A stretch of 12,785 nt of DNA from the IMG/VR virus record IMGVR_UViG_2563366819_000004; one strand, 5' to 3'. The stretch comes from a virus. Lineage: Duplodnaviria > Heunggongvirae > Uroviricota > Caudoviricetes. Below are positions 1 through 12,785 of this stretch, piece after piece; within the stretch, counting starts at the first letter, position 1, and each line of letters opens with the position of its first letter. A program made the position numbers and the translations under genes. The notes under the pieces are model-generated. The model searched no databases, had not been told where the DNA came from, and saw only the letters and a list, made by a program, of their open reading frames with translations.

Positions 1-1074
1 TCATTTGTCGATTTCAATTTTGTCCCATTCCCGTCCACGGCGGTCCCTATACCGCGCCGCCATTGAATCTGATTTATGCCCGAGAAGACGTTGAGCAAAC
101 TTATCGCCAATCTGGTTCCGGTATAGCCTCGCTGACAGGCTACGCAGTTCATGGAATGTTGGCGGGTCTCCATCAAATGAGAGTCCAGATGCATTTCTCG
201 CCTTTGTAAAATACTTCGATACTGTTTTAGGGGAAAGCGGATCGTGATGCTTTGATGCGATTATAGTTTCACTGCCGCTGGCCTCCCTGCATTTCTGTAG
301 TGTATCAGCCAATGAGATATTGAGCGCGTCAATCGTTAGCGTTAGCGGAATGGCGAGCTTAGCCCCTGTTTTACTCTGTTCAATGTGAAGATGGTTGTCG
401 TTTATGTCTGACCATTTCATTCTACACAAATCGCCCACTCTCTGCCCTGTAACGACCGCCAAATCCATTGCCAGCCTCAGCCAGATTGGGAGAGGTTCGG
501 CTGCATGGTAAATCGCGACATACTCATTAGCCGTCAGCCTTGAGCGCCTTACTTCTGACTTTGCTGTGCGGGTCGCTGTTACTGGATTCGTTTCCACATG
601 CCCCTCGGCTATTGCCTCACGAAAAACGTCAACAAGGGTTGACCTGATTAATTTTGCGGAAGCCGCTTTACCTTCTGCTACGTAGGTGTTTAGCATTGCT
701 GCCACCTCTTTCGTTGATATGTCAGTGAGCGGTTTGTCCGGCAATTTTCTTCGAATTGCCCTGATTTTGCTGGCGTAGTCGAGTAGAGTTTTCGGTCTGA
801 TACCCCTCTCGCTGATGATTGTTTCATATCGGTCAAGCCACGTATGAAGAGTGATTGCGTCAGCGCCTTTAATCCTGTCGATCAGTGACTCACGCCTGCT
901 CTCGGATAGCAACTCAATATTGGCCTGAATGGCCTCTGAAACTGCTATCCTTCTGTCTCTGCCTAATCCGAACTCTTTACCCGTCCTTGGGTCCCTGTAG
1001 CAGTAATATCCATTGTTTCTTATATAAAGGTTAGGGGGTAAATCCCGGCGCTCATGACTTCGCCTTCTTCCCAT
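1..1074 (-). CDS. int: Tyrosine site-specific integrase, lambda Int-type (357 aa, complete)
   Basis: Translation begins MGRRRSHERRDLPPNLYIRNNGYYCYRDPRTGKEFGLGRDRR and ends RGREWDKIEIDK, which I recognise as very close to phage lambda Int. ATG at 1074..1072, stop at 3..1. Overlapped at its 5' end by xis, as in lambda. Confidence 0.95.
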   Translation of the reverse strand: MGRRRSHERRDLPPNLYIRNNGYYCYRDPRTGKEFGLGRDRRIAVSEAIQANIELLSESRRESLIDRIKGADAITLHTWLDRYETIISERGIRPKTLLDYASKIRAIRRKLPDKPLTDISTKEVAAMLNTYVAEGKAASAKLIRSTLVDVFREAIAEGHVETNPVTATRTAKSEVRRSRLTANEYVAIYHAAEPLPIWLRLAMDLAVVTGQRVGDLCRMKWSDINDNHLHIEQSKTGAKLAIPLTLTIDALNISLADTLQKCREASGSETIIASKHHDPLSPKTVSKYFTKARNASGLSFDGDPPTFHELRSLSARLYRNQIGDKFAQRLLGHKSDSMAARYRDRRGREWDKIEIDK

Positions 1075-1715: not shown

Positions 1716-3545
<1,830 letters not shown>

Positions 3546-3756: not shown

Positions 3757-3885
3757 TTCAATGCCGATATTTACCTTTATCGCGTATACCTTTACCGGTT
3801 TATCGCCAAAGTGTGGATGTGTGATTGTCTTTATTTCATATCCGTCATACGGGACGTCAATTCTACGACTGGAGTCGTCGCGCTT
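3757..3885 (-). other. Possible 3' remnant of a leftward early gene at the deletion junction
   Basis: Minus-strand frame ends ...[36 protein letters not shown] with stop at 3756..3754. There is no internal start; the upstream part of the frame is antisense to the coat gene, so only the tail can be genuine. Product not recognised. Confidence 0.3.
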
Positions 3886-4937
3886 CGGATAACGATTTCT
3901 TCGAGCTTCGTGCAGATGACCTGCGTGATGAGCGTTCTTACCGTCGCCGCATCCAGGCATCCGCCAAAAAACTGGCGAATAACATTGAGTCAGCGATTGC
4001 CAAACAGGCAACTGAAATGGGCTCGCTTGTTGTTCACGATACCCGCGCAATTGGTCCATCTACTGGCCTGTCTGGCTGGGATTTTGTGTCTGATGCAGAG
4101 CGCCTGATGTTCTCCCGTGAGCTAAACCGCGATATGGGCATCAGTTACTTCCTGAACCCTGACGATTACCGCAAAGCAGGCCGCAACCTGGTAGATGGTG
4201 ACATCTTTGGTCGCGTTCCTGAAGAAGCGTATCGTAACGGTACTATTCAGCGTCAGATTGCTGGCTTTGATGAAATTCTTCGCTCACCGAAACTTCCGGC
4301 AGTTACCAAGTCAACCGCTACTGGTGTAACTGTTTCTGGTGCGCAGAAGTTTAAGCCGCAGGCATACACCCTTGATACCGATGGTAACAAAGAGAACGTC
4401 GACAACCGTGTTGCAACGGTGACCGTATCCTCCACCACCGGATTTAAGCGCGGCGACAAAATCAGCTTCACTGGTGTGAAATTCCTGTCTCAGATGGCGA
4501 AGAACGTGCTGACTGATGATGCGACTTTCTCAATCACCCGTGTGATCGATAGTACTCACATCGAAATCACGCCGAAGCCGATTGCACTGGATGACGCGTC
4601 ACTGACAAAAGAAGAGAAGGCTTACGCTAATGTAAACACCTCTCTTGCTGATAACACTCCGGTGAACGTTCTGAACGTGGCAACAACCACCGCTAACGTG
4701 TTCTGGGCTGATGACTCAATCCGTCTGCTGTCTCAGCCGATCCCGGTAACCCATGAACTGTTTGCTGGCATGAAAACGTCTTCCTTCAGCATTCCTGGTA
4801 TTGGTGTTAACGGCATCTTCGCAACGCAGGGTGATATCAACACTCTGTCTGGTAAGTGCCGTATTGCTGTGTGGTATTCAGCATGTGCTGTACGACCAGA
4901 GGCAATTGGTGTTGGTCTGCCTAACCAGACCGCGTGA
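3886..4937 (+). pseudogene. Major capsid (coat) protein, P22 gp5 type, 5'-truncated (about 80 N-terminal codons missing)
   Basis: From [32 protein letters not shown] to the C-terminus ...[14 protein letters not shown] the translation is collinear with P22 coat protein as I recall it. Upstream in-frame sequence shows no coat similarity and hits TGA at 3822..3824. No ATG or ribosome-binding site; the ORF track start at 3825 is TTG. Confidence 0.85.
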
Positions 4938-5030: not shown

Positions 5031-5226
<196 letters not shown>

Positions 5227-5249
<23 letters not shown>

Positions 5250-5646
5250 TTTAGTTCTTGCGGCATTACGTAAGCTCGGTGTGGCATCAAATGCCACGTT
5301 AACCGATGTCGAACCTCAGTCCATGGAAGATGGTGTCAACGACCTTGAAATGATGATGGTGGAATGGCTTGGCGGTGATGCGTCACCAGGTATCAACGTT
5401 GGCTACATTTTCGCTGATGCAGATGTCGCTCCAGATCCGGGCGATGAGCACGGTTTATCAAATAACGCTATCAATGCCGTCATTTTCAACCTTGCCTGCC
5501 GCATTGCTCCAGATTATGCGCTGGAAGCGTCTGCAAAACTTATAACCACTGCCAGATACGGGAAAGAGCGACTCGTCAAACTGTCTGCAATGGACAGAGC
5601 AAAAGCCGCTAAATGTAAGTCCGGTTACCCGTGTTGGTCACCTTGA
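5227..5646 (+). CDS. Head-completion / portal-binding protein, P22 gp4-like (139 aa)
   Basis: First gene downstream of coat, as in P22-like gene order. ATG at 5227 with AAGG 9 nt upstream. Assignment is by position and size plus partial sequence recollection. An upstream in-frame ATG at 5122 would add a (QS)n leader but has no usable ribosome-binding spacing. Confidence 0.6.
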
Positions 5647-6398: not shown

Positions 6399-7700
6399 TT
6401 GGCTACATGGCAACAGGCTGGTAATTCAGGCGCGCTTCTTGCCGGGTTAGGCGGCATGAACTCCAACGCTCCAAGAGCAAGTGATGCAGACGCCACGCTT
6501 GCATACATTCGACAGAATAACGAGATGGAGCGTTCAGGACGTAATAACGTTGGCTTGCAGGCTTTGCAGGGAATTTCATCTGTCATGGATATGTATAAGC
6601 AGATGGATCAGCAGAAGCGACAGCAAGAGTTTCAGCAGGCTTATGCTGATGCATATACATCTGGTGACCGCGATGCAATGCGAAAACTGGCATCACAGTA
6701 TCCTGAGCAGTTTGACGCTGTAAGAAACGGCATGAAATTTGTCGATGAAGACCAGCGTTCCACTGTCGGTACACTGGCAGCAAGTGCCAGACTCGCAGCT
6801 TCATCTCCAGAAGCCATGATGTCATGGTTGCAGAACAACTCATCTGAGCTTACTCGTGCCGGAGTAGACCCTCTGGATGTGGCGAAAATGTATCAGCAAA
6901 ATCCACAAGGTTTCACAGATTTTGTTGATCACCTTGGAATGGCTGCTCTTGGTCCGATTGACTACTTCAATGTTCAGGACAAGATGGCTGGTCGTGAAAT
7001 TGACCGAGGCAGGCTGGCAGAGACAATCCGCAGCAATCAGGCTGGAGAAGCACTAACAGCTCTAGGTCAGGACATCCAGATACGTGGACAGAACATCAGC
7101 GCACAGAATGCTGCTCTTTCCAGAGAAATACAAAGAGCAGAATTACAAGAAAAGGCTCTGGACAGACAGATAGCCAGAGAAAGTAATCAGTTAAAGCTTG
7201 AAGAGCTAAAACAGAAACAGGCAGATGTTCGGCAAAAGGCTGACATAGCCCGTGCTGACAGGCAGGCCGCCGCTCAGGGTGCAGTTGATACGTTCAGCAC
7301 CGCGCTTGATTCTCTCAACGAGATAGAGCAAAGCCCCGGCCTTTCAAAAGCAGTAGGAATTCGCTCAGCGTTTCCGACAGTTCCTGGCTCTGATGCGGCT
7401 AACTTTGAAGCAAGGCTCGACACCTTTAAAGCTCAAACTTTCCTTCCTATGGTGCAGTCCCTTAAGGGGATGGGGGCTTTTTCAGATGCTGAGGGTAAAA
7501 AATTATCCGATGCGGTTGGTGCACTAAGCCCCAAAATGAGTGAAAAGGCTTTTCGTGACTCTATCGGAAAGATTAGAAATCAGCTTGAAATCAAGTTGAG
7601 CACTGTTAAAAAACAGTTTGATTATCAGAAGCCAGTACAGAATACGCCAGGGCAACAATCTACTACTGGCAGTAACTTTTCTTCACTATGGGGTGATTAA
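6399..7700 (+). CDS. Ejection protein, P22 gp20-like (433 aa); TTG start
   Basis: GGAGG 6 nt upstream of TTG at 6399, 12 nt after the preceding stop. Coiled-coil-like central region. Size and order fit gp20. Stop overlaps the next start (TAATG). Confidence 0.5.
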   Translation: MATWQQAGNSGALLAGLGGMNSNAPRASDADATLAYIRQNNEMERSGRNNVGLQALQGISSVMDMYKQMDQQKRQQEFQQAYADAYTSGDRDAMRKLASQYPEQFDAVRNGMKFVDEDQRSTVGTLAASARLAASSPEAMMSWLQNNSSELTRAGVDPLDVAKMYQQNPQGFTDFVDHLGMAALGPIDYFNVQDKMAGREIDRGRLAETIRSNQAGEALTALGQDIQIRGQNISAQNAALSREIQRAELQEKALDRQIARESNQLKLEELKQKQADVRQKADIARADRQAAAQGAVDTFSTALDSLNEIEQSPGLSKAVGIRSAFPTVPGSDAANFEARLDTFKAQTFLPMVQSLKGMGAFSDAEGKKLSDAVGALSPKMSEKAFRDSIGKIRNQLEIKLSTVKKQFDYQKPVQNTPGQQSTTGSNFSSLWGD

Positions 7701-9696
7701 TGGCTAAAGCATGGAAAGATGTTATCGCCTCTCCACAGTATCAGGCGTTAGCACCAGAACAAAAAGCGAAGGCGCAGGAGCAATACTTCAATGAAGTCGT
7801 TGCCCCGCAAGCCGGAGAAAATGCAGAGCAGGCTAAGCAAGCTTTCTATGCTGCCTATCCATTGCCATCTGCGCAGCCAGTGGAGACACAGCAACCAGTA
7901 GCACAGCAACAACCACAGCAAAGTGGATTTATGTCTGACCTTGGCGAAGCAGTAAAAGAGACTGGTCGCGGACTGGTGCAGGCCGGCGTGAAAGTGGCAA
8001 ACATACCTGCATCAGTTGCCGATGCTGTAACAAGCGCGGCGGCTTGGGCTGGCGGTAAACTCGGCATTGGCGATGGGACATATCAACCAGCGCCACGAGT
8101 AACAACGCAGGGATTAGAGCAGGACTTTGGCCTTCAGCAAGGCGCGCTGACTCCACAAACGACAGAGGGCAGGGTATTTGCTGAAGCATTGCCTTACCTC
8201 ACTCCTGCTGGTGTTGAGAGAGCGGCAACACAGGCACCAACACTTGCTGGTCGAATTGCTCAGGGGGCAACTCGCCTTCTCTTAGAAAAGCAGTTGGATC
8301 ACTTGCTGTAAATAGTGCGAAAGATGATGCGGAAGCACTCGCCACCGATTTAGGCGTTGGCGTTCTGTCTGGCGGTGCTATTAACGTTGCCGGACGTGGA
8401 TTAGGTGCTGCTTATCGTGGCGTTCGTGGCGCGATAGCACCCGAAGCGCAACAGGCTATCAGGTTTGCAGAGCGTGAAGGCGTACCTCTGCACACCACAG
8501 ACCTGTTACAACCGACTTCCCGCGTCGGGAAAATGGCGCAGACGACAGCGGAAAATATCCCTCTGGCTGGCACAAGCGGAATGAGAGCAACGCAACAGGA
8601 AGCGAGAAGCCAGTTGGTGCAGAGATTTGCCGATAAATTCGGTGAGTATGATCCAGCGGTTGTTATTGACAGCCTTAAAGCGAAAACATCAGGAATTCGT
8701 CGTGCCGCCGGTAATAGACTGGAGCAGGTTCAGAATGCTATGGCTGGAGTAAACATTCAGCCTGCGCGAGCAATTCAGCAGATTGATACAGAAATATCTA
8801 ACCTGCAGAAGCTTGGTAAGGTTGCTGATAACGAGACTATTTCAAAACTTCAGTCCTATCGTGATGAGCTTGTTCGCAATGCTGGTCCTGATGGTCCGGT
8901 AAATCTGGATTTGAAGCAATTAAGCGATCTGCGCAGCCAGTTCAGAATGGACGTGAAGGGTGAGCGACCAGTGTTACCAAACCGTTCCGATGCTGCCATT
9001 CAGCGCGTTTACAAGGCAATGACCGACGATATCAATGGTGCCATTGGTCAGAATCTTGGCAACGATACTCTCCGTAAATATCAGCAGGCCAATGCCGTCT
9101 ACGCTGACGAAGCGGCGAAACTAAAGAATACCAGGCTGAAGAATGGTCTCATGAAAGGCGACCTGACGCCGGAAGTTGTCAACAACATGCTATTCAGCAA
9201 GAACAAATCGGAAATTAAGACGCTGTATAACTCAGTTGGTCGTGTTGGCAGGGCGCAAATGCGCAATGGCATCATTGGAAAGGCGATGGAGAAATCAGGT
9301 GGATCCCCTGACCAGTTCCTTCGGCAGCTTAACATCCTGCAAAACCAGACTGGAATAACATTTAAGGGGCAGGATGGTGCTTATCTGAAAGGATTGAAAA
9401 ACTACCTTCAATCCACGCAGCAGGCTGCAAAAGCGGCAGTAACAACCCCCACAGGGCAGCAAACCATCCCGTTCATTATCGGGTATGGGACGGCAATGAA
9501 CCCTGCAACAACTGGCGCAGCAGTAAGCTACGGACTTCTTACTCGCACCTATGAGAGCGAGCCATTCAGAAATGCAATGCTCCGAATGGCAAACACTCCA
9601 CGCGGATCAACAGCGTTTGAGAAAGCCATGCAGCAAGCGCAAAAAGCGATTAATGCACTGACGCAGGGTGCGAAGTCTGATTCGTTGTCAGAATAG
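7700..9696 (+). pseudogene. Ejection protein, P22 gp16-like, interrupted by a frameshift (two ORFs: 7700..8311 and 8218..9696)
   Basis: The 7700 frame stops at 8311; a second frame is open from 8218 and continues to 9696 with no start codon until 8533. The overlap contains an A4 tract at 8286..8289; adding one A there fuses the frames into a single protein of about 665 aa (...ATRLLLEK/AVGSLAVNSAKDD...). Confidence 0.55.
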
Positions 9697-9785: not shown

Positions 9786-10046
9786 TTAGCCGCTGTCTTT
9801 TTTATATAGCTCTTTGAGCGTATCAAAGACAATTTTCTTAACCATATCAGATTGTTGTTCTGCCATACGCTCTGCATCGTCAATGTAAACTGATGCAGAG
9901 CTTTGTTTAGTCAATGATTCTTCAATCGCTGCAATTATCTCTGAGTTCAGCGACCTGTTATTCATCTTCGCGCGCTGTTTAATTTTCGCGTGGAGTTCAT
10001 ATGGAAGTCTCAAGTGAAACTGCGCCTCGTCGTATTTGCTGTACAT
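9786..10046 (-). CDS. mnt: Mnt-type ribbon-helix-helix repressor (86 aa)
   Basis: Translation MYSKYDEAQFHLRLPYELHAKIKQRAKMNNRSLNSEIIAAIEESL...DAERMAEQQSDMVKKIVFDTLKELYKKDSG is collinear with P22 Mnt as I recall it. Start taken at the second in-frame ATG (10046), which has GAGG 8 nt upstream; the ORF track start at 10079 has no ribosome-binding site. Confidence 0.85.
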   Translation of the reverse strand: MYSKYDEAQFHLRLPYELHAKIKQRAKMNNRSLNSEIIAAIEESLTKQSSASVYIDDAERMAEQQSDMVKKIVFDTLKELYKKDSG

Positions 10047-10167
10047 CCTTGATGCCTCACCAGTTGGGTGGAATGGCATCGTAACCTACTGGATAAATAC
10101 TCAATAGTACCATTTCGGTATGCAATCACATCATGGTTGCATCATATCATTCTTCTGGAGCAATGAT
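10047..10167. promoter_or_regulatory. Divergent intergenic control region between mnt and the tailspike gene
   Basis: 121-bp AT-rich spacer between divergent starts. Contains short inverted repeats (ATGCAA-N11-TTGCAT at about 10120..10142; TACT-N4-AGTA at about 10099..10110). No promoter or operator is proven. Confidence 0.35.
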
Positions 10168-11892
10168 ATGTCAGATATCACCGCAAATGTTGTGGTAAGC
10201 ATGCCTTCGCAACTATTTACTATGGCTCGTTCTTTTAAAGCCGTAGCCAATGGCAAAATTCATATCGGGAAAATTGACACTGACCCGGTAAATCCTGAAA
10301 ACCAGATTCAGGTTTATGTAGAGAATGAAGACGGTTCTCACGTCCCTGTTTCGCAACCAATCATCATTAACGCTGCTGGATATCCGGTATACAACGGACA
10401 GATTGCCAAATTCGTTACCGTGCAAGGCCATTCTATGGCTGTTTATGATGCGTATGGTGCGCAGCAGTTCTATTTTCCTAATATTCTGAAATATGATCCA
10501 GACCAACTTAGACAAGATCTTTCAAATGGCGGAGATAGTTTAGGTGATAGCTTGGTAGCTGTTAATCAGCCAGTTATTGAAAGCATAAAAAGAACCCAGC
10601 ATGATAAAAACTATGAATCTATATCTTTACGTGATTTTTCTGGTTCAATTGGTGAAGACTGGACTATACCGCTACAAAATGCATTTAATTGGTTATCATC
10701 TGGACCAAATAGAACACTTGTGATACCTCATGACGGAGTATTTGGACTTACATCCGCAACTCTTACTCTTAATGGAGACTTAAGTAGAAATTCCAGAATT
10801 GTATGTGAAGGTAGTTTGAAGCATTTAAGAACAACCGGAGATATGATAACGATCTCTGGCGGAATGTACGGTGAGTTTGAATTCAATATTTATGGGAGTG
10901 GGTATAATCCAGAAAGTATCCCTGACTATCAAATGCCGGATCCAGATGGATGTCAACAGGCAATTGTCTTTGCTGGTAATAGGGCGTGCAAGCTTAAGAT
11001 AATGGCTATAGGATACCCTGGACGTGTATTAAGAACTAAACAAGTTGGGCCTGTGAAGCAAAGTTTTATCGATCTTGATATTACAACGGGCAATGATACT
11101 TGCGGACAAGCAATGTATCTTCAGGGTACTGATGCTTTTGGGTGCATTAGCTTTGCTAACACCAACTGGGATTATTATGGCAGTGTTATTGATGGAATAA
11201 CTGATTTAAGCATTGTCTATTGGGAGGCTGGCTCAAAAGGTTCTAACACACCGGAGGTTACGTTTGATAATATAAATAACTGTCATATTGGAACCATTGC
11301 AATAGGGCAGGATGGAACTAACTCTGCTTTATTAGTTAACAGTGGTAGAGCAATCACTATTCAAAAGGCTTTGCTCGGAGAGTCAACCTACGGGTTAGAA
11401 GTGATTGGAAGTGGAGTAGGGCAGCCAATGCATCAACTGACAATACATTCACTACTATGTGCTAACATAAGAACTGCTGGAGTCAGGCTTTCAAATGCGG
11501 TTGGAGTTACAATCAAAGACCATGTCTTTGACGGATGCCCTTACGATGTAATGTTTTTCAATTTGTGTCGGGATATAATTATAAAAGGCCATCATCGAAA
11601 CCCAATAATCGCATGTTTTTATGGTGTGGAATCGTCTACCATTGAAAATCTCACTTTAAATGGCAAGTTTTATACAGCCGGTAACAGTACGTTTTGTGAT
11701 TTCAGGCTTTCTGATACCATAAACGTGCTGATTGATGACTTTACAGTTGTTACACAAGGTAGCTACCTCATGCTTAAGGATGCGAACAATGGTGTTTCAG
11801 TAAGAGGTGGGAATTGGTCAGGAACTTTACTTCCTATTTCAACCGCAATTGAATTCCAGCCGCGAACCATAAAGGACGTAACAGGGTTTTAA
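10168..11892 (+). CDS. Tailspike protein (574 aa as annotated) with P22-type head-binding domain and divergent receptor-binding domain
   Basis: N-terminus [59 protein letters not shown]...[13 protein letters not shown]...LKYDPDQ is collinear with the P22 tailspike head-binding domain. The remainder is unrelated to the P22 endorhamnosidase domain and visibly AT-richer. GGAG 7 nt upstream of the ATG. Confidence 0.9.
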
Positions 11893-11907
11893 ACCAGAAA
11901 AACAAAC

Positions 11908-12159
11908 GTGGCTAAATCCTTCCCCATTGGTTCAGTTACAGGATCTAAGATTTCTTACGCTCACGGACTCTACCGTTCACCAACAGAGATTTCTGTGGTG
12001 ATACTTGACACCCCTGATGTATTAGGTGCTGCTAACTCTTCGATAATTGTGCAAAGTGTCGATAGCGTGAACATCGTTTTCAAATATGTAGGGAGTGAAA
12101 CACTAGCCAATACTCTAAACTTCAGGGTTACATTGAAAGCCGAGGACAGATCTAATTAA
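11908..12159 (+). CDS. In-frame downstream ORF (83 codons): either the displaced C-terminus of the tailspike or a small tailspike-associated protein
   Basis: Same frame as the tailspike, separated only by TAA (11890..11892) plus 5 codons. No ATG (GTG at 11908) and no Shine-Dalgarno. Beta-strand-rich composition. Followed immediately by a strong terminator. Confidence 0.4.
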   Translation: MAKSFPIGSVTGSKISYAHGLYRSPTEISVVILDTPDVLGAANSSIIVQSVDSVNIVFKYVGSETLANTLNFRVTLKAEDRSN

Positions 12160-12183
12160 AAAGGGGCTTTAGCCCCTTTTATT
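12158..12183 (+). terminator. Rho-independent terminator ending the tailspike transcription unit
   Basis: AAAAA-GGGGC-TTTA-GCCCC-TTTTATT directly after the TAA at 12157..12159; the A-run before and T-run after make it potentially bidirectional. Confidence 0.75.
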
Positions 12184-12195
12184 GTGCACAGAAAA

Positions 12196-12214
12196 CCCCC
12201 AGCTAGGCTGGGGG
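12196..12214. other. IS200-like left-end hairpin (8-bp stem CCCCCAGC / GCTGGGGG)
   Basis: Perfect 8-bp inverted repeat with a 3-nt loop, flanked by GAAAA on the plus strand. Position matches the IS200 left-end terminator-like hairpin that blocks read-through transcription. Confidence 0.6.
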
Positions 12215-12251
12215 TTCCGGAAAGCTTTCAGCTTTAAGCCAGTTATTAAAA

Positions 12252-12320
12252 CCCCTTTTGATTTGTTAAAACACCTTGCGGTCTGGCAACTGCAAGTGTC
12301 AAACAAGAAATCAAAAGGGG
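12252..12320 (+). promoter_or_regulatory. Long-range stem sequestering the tnpA Shine-Dalgarno
   Basis: CCCCTTTTGATTT (12252..12264) is the exact reverse complement of AAATCAAAAGGGG (12308..12320); the latter contains the AAGGGGG ribosome-binding site just upstream of the tnpA ATG at 12327. Confidence 0.6.
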
Positions 12321-12326
12321 GTCCCA

Positions 12327-12785
12327 ATGGGGAACGAAAAGAGCTTAGCGCACACCCGATGGAACTGTAAATATCACATAGTTTTTGCGCCAAAATACCG
12401 AAGACAGGTGTTCTACAGAGAGAAGCGTAGAGCAATAGGCAGTATTTTGAGAAAGCTGTGTGAGTGGAAAAGTGTACGGATTCTGGAAGCTGAATGCTGT
12501 GCAGATCATATCCATATGCTTGTGGAGATCCCGCCCAAAATGAGCGTATCCGGCTTTATGGGATATCTGAAAGGGAAAAGCAGTCTGATGCTTTACGAGC
12601 AGTTTGGTGATTTGAAATTCAAATACAGGAACAGGGAGTTCTGGTGCAGAGGGTACTACGTCGATACGGTGGGTAAGAACACGGCGAAGATACAGGATTA
12701 CATAAAGCACCAGCTTGAAGAGGATAAAATGGGAGAGCAGTTATCGATTCCCTATCCGGGCAGCCCGTTTACGGGCCGTAAGTAA
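12327..12785 (+). CDS. tnpA: IS200-family transposase TnpA (Y1/HUH type, 152 aa)
   Basis: Translation MGNEKSLAHTRWNCKYHIVFAPKYRRQVFY...CCADHIHMLVEIPPK...FWCRGYYVDTVG carries the HUH motif (HIHML) and the catalytic tyrosine region typical of IS200 TnpA. The ORF track start at 12276 is upstream of the true ATG. Stop is the last 3 nt of the window. Confidence 0.9.
   Translation: MGNEKSLAHTRWNCKYHIVFAPKYRRQVFYREKRRAIGSILRKLCEWKSVRILEAECCADHIHMLVEIPPKMSVSGFMGYLKGKSSLMLYEQFGDLKFKYRNREFWCRGYYVDTVGKNTAKIQDYIKHQLEEDKMGEQLSIPYPGSPFTGRK

Follow-up and report, generated by a model that had tools for sequence, protein, structure and literature searches.

We found that the tailspike gene in the remnant of a P22-like E. 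coli prophage, carried on a 12,785-nucleotide stretch of DNA (hereafter the window), is a mosaic with a swapped receptor-binding module, that its ancestral target was probably the O120 O-antigen, and that it is now truncated by a nonsense codon and most likely a relic; to this reading as a whole we assign a probability of roughly 0.8. The gene would be the gene 9 equivalent of a temperate P22-like E. coli phage, with a first module (residues 1–115) that would plug the trimeric spike into the tail hub and a second (residues 116–663 in intact alleles) predicted to form a neck, a parallel beta-helix and a small C-terminal beta domain, the helix being the putative element that binds and cleaves a surface polysaccharide. 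For the E. coli version of this module, the ancestral substrate would be the O120 O-antigen. In the window copy, TAA in place of TCA at codon 575 strips away the whole conserved C-terminal domain, and the particle-building genes are also gone; the copy appears to be a relic in decay that has become fixed within a single, widely sampled lineage of E. coli.

A P22-like prophage remnant spans the window, as judged from the ORF list and Pfam scans. It begins with an integrase gene (1–1074, minus strand) with an excisionase beside it, and an IS21 element encoding istA and istB (1744–3545) lies between the integrase-excisionase end and a 5′-truncated P22-family coat gene (3825–4937; Pfam model positions 84–422 of 423). 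A gp4-like gene and then the gp7 and gp20 ejection genes lie 3′ of the coat gene, followed by a gp16 ejection gene split into two ORFs (7700–8311 and 8533–9696). An mnt-type repressor on the minus strand (9786–10079; Pfam Arc and Repressor_Mnt), a remnant of the immI region, sits immediately upstream of the tailspike ORF (10168–11892, plus strand; 574 aa), and an IS200-family element (12186–12785, plus strand; Pfam Y1_Tnp, E 3.9e-38) runs off the window, its transposase extending from 12324 to the window end. The gene order upstream of the tailspike rests on Pfam matches to P22_CoatProtein, P22_Tail-4, P22_gp7 and Inj_translocase, with mnt adjoining, and places the tailspike ORF where a P22-type tailspike gene lies, after the ejection genes and the immI region. 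The intact prophages of E. coli strains CT02 and S87 showed the same gene order.

The remnant in E. coli 19KM1831 was 99.7–100% identical to the window, which differed from it in being without the IS4 in the integrase gene, in an extra 2.7-kb deletion at 5626–5627 (L001 6812–9526) that takes the gp4 3′ end, gp10, the gp26 tail needle and gp14, and in carrying the IS200 insertion. By ORF list, Pfam and genome comparison, terminase, portal, scaffold, gp10, gp26 and gp14 were missing from the remnant, and early and lysis genes were likewise absent from the window. Since terminase, portal, scaffold, gp10, gp26 and gp14 are gone, there is no virion to carry a spike, and the surrounding prophage cannot make virions. 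Two smaller features of the virion genes were also noted. The gp16 orthologue of 19KM1831 is annotated as frameshifted, and at the start of the gp4-like ORF (window ~5130–5190) there is a hexanucleotide repeat that is read as (EP)n or, in the other frame, as (QS)n, the gp4-like product being 174, 172 or 170 aa depending on the assembly, which suggests variation in repeat number.

The N-terminal part of the gene encodes a head-binding (particle-anchoring) domain (codons 1–115; 10168–10512, plus strand). The original prediction had called the first ~115 residues P22-like, and this was borne out by a PF09008 Head_binding match over residues 1–113 (model positions 1–113 of 113; E 7.6e-67) and by a PDB search in which the P22, Sf6 and HK620 head-binding domains aligned (E 1e-44 to 1e-75), the P22 and Sf6 domains being solved structures. 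At the DNA level this part was ~92% identical to Sf101, IME10 and HK620. The domain closes with a YDPDQ motif (10489–10503), and directly after it comes the module junction (10498–10527, plus strand), where identity with the tailspike genes of other P22-like phages collapses. Against HK620 and CUS-3, identity in 30-nt bins fell from 90–100% to ~50% at gene nt 330–360, which is window 10498–10527, and in a megablast search 29 phage and 1157 E. coli records matched only the first ~400 nt of the query, with matches stopping at window 10496–10524. The proposed mosaic with a swap at the classical YDPDQ point is therefore confirmed by the identity collapse, whereas the accompanying statement that the sequence diverges completely beyond YDPDQ was too strong, since similarity to the Sf6 tailspike protein persisted through the neck and cap to ~residue 210 and Sf6 DNA identity was still 63–76% up to ~nt 510. 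As translated in the window, the receptor-binding module comprises residues 116–574 (10513–11889, plus strand), with a linker or neck, an N-terminal cap and the beta-helix body.

A second exchange lies further upstream. Comparison of the window with the CT02 tailspike gene gave 26 mismatches in the first 252 nt and 16 in the following 1740 (nt 253–1992), window 10168–10420 being ~10% divergent from its CT02 counterpart (L002 14016–14268), with <1% divergence thereafter. This skew indicates, as read from the aligned genes, a second recombination breakpoint inside the head-binding coding DNA and not at YDPDQ. The three E. coli prophages that bear the module have differing virion-gene backbones and occupy two integration sites (torT-side and argW-yfdC); together with the internal breakpoint, this provides direct evidence of movement of the module by homologous recombination via the conserved 5′ part of the tailspike gene. 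Recombination both within the head-binding DNA and at YDPDQ would shuttle the module between phage backbones.

To describe the fold of the module, an AlphaFold2 monomer model of an intact allele (P0001; 98% identical) was obtained with 14 homologs as input. The model had a mean pLDDT of 79.7 (~90 over residues 150–660) and showed stacked beta-strands forming a right-handed parallel beta-helix of the pectin-lyase-like fold. A structure prediction of the region beyond ~residue 120 had been proposed as a check for just such a helix, and it was found there, like those of polysaccharide depolymerases; we regard the modelled right-handed beta-helix fold of the module as established. For the helix body, PDB searches by single sequence or family profile gave no match, the hits being to the head-binding domain and the N-terminal cap only, and Pfam gave nothing (E ≤ 0.01 for the window protein, E ≤ 0.001 for P0001), PF12708 Pectate_lyase_3 included. 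Several homologs carry a precomputed PF12708 match, and the family profile matched the cap region of pectin-lyase-fold PDB proteins. The homolog alignment contained a dense invariant block at residues 254–362, including D258, D310, D322, D346 and E353. From the pattern of conservation, this block is likely the substrate or active-site region and its acidic residues are candidate catalytic residues, and we infer that the module is enzymatically active, as a putative polysaccharide depolymerase.

We then compared the module with those of known phages. A tblastn search against phages gave 52–59% identity to tail proteins of Klebsiella podophages (Koku, Pkp-1, phi1_146013, P7124, SAKp10309, SU552A and P929) and 34–36% to Menlow, Magnus and ZCEC13; overall, the closest phage relatives were Klebsiella proteins at 50–59% identity. 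With a best phage match of 59% at the amino acid level, the C-terminal part is not near-identical to a characterised tailspike. By megablast the receptor-binding module had no DNA relative among phages, a one-genome-per-species scan with close-relative patterns gave no match, and IMG/VR yielded a single match, one truncated contig at 98% identity. Homology extended over the whole module (50–56% identity at 95–100% coverage for the P929, SU552A and Pkp-1 types), and the two Klebsiella types were 49% identical, as distant from each other as each is from the E. coli module. The N-termini on homologs of the module were Head_binding PF09008 (E. coli and Leclercia), the TSP1/gp66 N-terminal domain PF18668, the T7 tail-fibre domain PF03906 (P0009, 763 aa) and a bare short N-terminus (proteins of 543–548 aa); in Klebsiella and Escherichia phages, related copies are carried on T7 tail-fibre, TSP1/gp66-type and short KP34-like anchors.

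Several of these relatives are tied to the Klebsiella K19 capsule. The short-N-terminus type is the second receptor-binding protein of KP34-like phages, for example YP_009204843 of SU552A (PMC6872550). The P929 homolog (548 aa) is the 56th of 57 annotated features in its genome; ORF56 of P929 has been listed as a K19 depolymerase, and the phage as KL19-specific (PMC10051899). K19-Dpo41 (ORF41 of NGDC GWHBGZN00000000), a 763-aa protein encoded by 2292 bp with a T7 N-terminal domain, has been found experimentally to degrade K19 capsule (PMC9257171). The gp17 gene of Pkp-1 is exactly 2292 bp and its product is 97% identical to P0009; judged by length, architecture and genome size against the Pkp-1/P0009 type, K19-Dpo41 likely belongs to the same module family. 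The O120 serotype of the E. coli carriers suggests that the substrate of the E. coli module differs from the K19 capsule and is possibly related to it.

This serotype association was drawn from complete genomes. The module was carried by 3 of 5426 complete E. coli genomes (19KM1831, CT02 and S87). The annotated O-antigen cluster of 19KM1831 includes wzx and wzy of type O120, and the O120 wzy-wzx segment was present in only 10 of the 5426, all three module carriers among them (hypergeometric P = 4.5e-9; n = 3 carriers, complete genomes). Since the O120 alleles varied (97.3–99.2% identical) and the prophages differ, the carriers are not one clone. The genes gtrA-gtrB-gtrC(DUF2142) lay directly downstream of the tailspike in 19KM1831, S87 and three further assemblies (L012, L013 and L014). 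The gtrABC operon modifies the O-antigen, and this linkage therefore fits the expectation that a phage modifies the O-antigen that serves as its own receptor. Based on the lysogen serotype in three complete genomes and the gtrABC linkage, intact alleles are probably specific for the O120 O-antigen. The specificity, which the original prediction had left as unknown, can thus be narrowed: the module falls in a family with Klebsiella K19-associated depolymerases, and among complete E. coli genomes it occurred in O120 strains only.

Alternatively, the module could target an E. coli capsular (K) polysaccharide, as its Klebsiella relatives and the K1 endosialidase of CUS-3 do. The nearest relatives with functional information are those tied to the K19 capsule, and at least one P22-like phage, CUS-3, has a capsule receptor. 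We nevertheless consider a capsular target unlikely, given that the module and the rare O120 cluster co-occur perfectly and that the module is physically linked to O-antigen-modifying genes. In addition, the colanic-acid wca cluster adjoins galF in 19KM1831, as it does in strains that lack a group 1 capsule, which argues against a capsule of that group, and of that group only.

The O120 reading also has a chemical side. The O120 cluster carries rmlBDAC and a rhamnosyltransferase gene, and the structure of the O120 O-unit has reportedly been published (Perepelov, in Carbohydr Res, 2012). According to a composition table, Klebsiella K19 is rich in rhamnose (PMC6856556). We put forward tentatively the speculative possibility that the intact 663-aa alleles of CT02, S87 and E. 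marmotae represent the first O120-specific tailspike depolymerase, in a family that crosses genus and O-antigen/capsule boundaries, with rhamnose-containing O120 and rhamnose-rich K19 sharing a cleavable motif. If this were true, one catalytic scaffold, at ~50% identity, would serve both O120 and K19 on several virion anchors.

While the original prediction had taken 11892 as the end of the gene, we found that the codon ending there is a premature in-frame TAA (codon 575; 11890–11892, plus strand), which is TCA (Ser) in intact alleles, and that the frame runs on to 12159. The CT02 and S87 alleles have TCA at codon 575 and are 1992 nt and 663 aa long (WP_223602112.1 in CT02), 663-aa intact alleles being known from CT02, S87 and E. 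marmotae, and the window frame 10168–12159 is likewise exactly 1992 nt with one internal stop. Unlike a complete P22-type tailspike frame, it is interrupted at codon 575 of 663. The untranslated remainder (codons 576–663 and the natural stop; 11893–12159, plus strand) corresponds to a conserved C-terminal beta domain. The lost 89 residues aligned with 12 of 12 full-length relatives of P0001, with T576, R577, G588, G592, H599, E659 and R661 near-invariant (≥90% of sequences in the homolog alignment), and in the AlphaFold2 model of P0001 the lost segment formed a separate six-stranded beta domain (577–657). The same TAA was present in 19KM1831, and the exact 574-aa product was found on at least 62 contigs (135 index blocks), always in the same IS21-bearing remnant; therefore the mutation is real and fixed in one widely sampled E. 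coli lineage.

Maturation of tailspike trimers needs the C-terminal domains, as established for P22 gp9, and since maturation depends on them, we infer that the window copy is most likely a non-functional, dead gene. The P22-type family assignment holds for the gene lineage, and the window copy is most likely a pseudogene. An 83-aa ORF at 11908–12159 was considered as a separate gene (a chaperone, for example) and rejected; it is in frame with the tailspike and aligns to homolog C-termini, its GTG start lies only 15 nt past the TAA, and no obvious ribosome-binding site was seen. Directly past the natural stop lies a hairpin with a T-rich tail (12159–12185, plus strand; 9-bp stem, −14 kcal/mol, z −2.6 by folding). 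It is conserved in 19KM1831 and CT02 and is likely the terminator of the late operon; a simple consensus terminator scan did not list it. The IS200 element inserted exactly after this hairpin, between the tailspike terminator and the gtrC gene, and homology with 19KM1831, CT02 and S87 stops at window 12185.

It could still be argued that the 574-aa ORF encodes a tailspike or depolymerase that is whole and functional, and an active host-range determinant of unspecified target, since the frame is long and unbroken to 11892, retains the head-binding domain in full and the beta-helix almost in full, is annotated in RefSeq as a normal CDS and recurs as the exact allele on those ≥62 contigs. We find this very unlikely. 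Intact alleles are 663 aa and the window frame continues past a single TCA to TAA change, the missing segment was present in all 12 full-length relatives aligned, clonal spread with the same IS21 and deletions accounts for the abundance of the allele, and no particle is possible without terminase, portal, scaffold, gp10, gp26 and gp14. The proposal of an active host-range determinant in the window is therefore not supported: with nonsense at codon 575 in a prophage that cannot make virions, the truncated gene is most likely a relic.

Related assemblies showed what lies beyond the window end. In L013 and L014 (12160–15440), the identical truncated tailspike was followed by IS200, an intact gtrC(DUF2142)-gtrB-gtrA and then torT, so that the seroconversion operon is retained while virion genes decay. 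An even more stripped prophage (L012 6300–14684) contained int, xis, a cIII-like gene, the tailspike and gtrC-gtrB-gtrA, the tailspike (P0004) being an intact 663-aa relative at 62% identity. Judging from this prophage, the tailspike and gtr genes seem to be the last block to survive.

The original prediction had also described the DNA as visibly AT-richer after YDPDQ. Against the whole window this holds, with 39.9% GC (GC3 31%) in the receptor-binding part, the lowest in the window, compared to 48.5% across the window and 50% in the virion genes. The change at the junction itself, however, is only ~2.4 points (head-binding part, 42.3%), and the drop begins at ~9600, upstream of the tailspike gene, mnt being at 42.2% and the gtr operon at 41–42%; the receptor-binding parts of HK620, Sf6 and CUS-3 were at 44–46%. 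AT-richness extends over the whole mnt-tailspike-gtr end in these prophages and does not mark a particular swap. For the idea that the module came in recently from a low-GC donor outside the Enterobacteriaceae, one could cite its lowest GC in the window and the 52.6% GC of its homolog in Klebsiella phage P929, but this is very improbable, since the head-binding part, mnt and gtr operon are just as low, other P22-like receptor-binding modules are at 44–46%, every relative detected belonged to Enterobacteriaceae or their phages with no close relative (>80% nt identity) in a low-GC organism or its phages in the collections searched, and composition is uninformative on a recent donor at ~55% protein identity.

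As a mosaic the gene is textbook P22 biology, and the window pseudogene adds nothing on the mechanism of host-range switching. What the locus offers is a prediction that can be tested, that of an E. coli tailspike module, so far uncharacterised, with specificity for the rare O120 serogroup, which may find use in serotyping or as an O-antigen depolymerase, and it documents one depolymerase module common, at 50–60% identity and on several anchor types, to P22-like temperate phages of E. coli and to virulent phages of Klebsiella. It is also a clean example of differential prophage decay, in which the tailspike and virion genes rot while gtrABC is intact in sister assemblies.

Among known systems, P22 gp9, Sf6 gp14, HK620 gp9 and the CUS-3 endosialidase likewise have a full Head_binding domain, the YDPDQ junction and a beta-helix module, and P22-like tailspike genes occupy the same position, downstream of gp7/gp20/gp16 and the immI remnant, with the O-antigen modification genes and attachment site following. 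The likeness to Sf6 extends into the neck and cap (~residue 210), whereas the helix body shares no detectable sequence similarity with P22, Sf6, HK620 or CUS-3 and resembles them in fold only (10–15% identity); unlike these Lederbergvirus tailspikes, the window copy is cut by a nonsense codon. Ackermannviridae and other multi-spike phages (Menlow, Magnus, ZCEC13 and CBA120 TSP3) carry distant relatives of the module, with matches at 34–36% over >90% of its length, the family profile matching CBA120 TSP3 in the cap region only, and they differ in anchors and virion architecture. The Klebsiella K19/KL19 depolymerases are homologous from the cap to the C-terminal 'EDRSN' end at 50–56% identity and come in two types, the 763-aa gp17 of the T7-like phages Pkp-1, phi1_146013, P7124 and SAKp10309 (the K19-Dpo41 type) and the 548-aa second receptor-binding protein of the KP34-like phages P929 (ORF56) and SU552A. 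They differ from the E. coli module in their anchors (T7 tail-fibre or short N-terminal), in belonging to virulent Klebsiella phages, in a gene GC content of ~53% compared to 40%, and in a documented or predicted substrate that is the K19 capsule and not an E. coli O-antigen; common to both is an invariant block around a 15-residue stretch followed by NWDYYGS and YWEAG.
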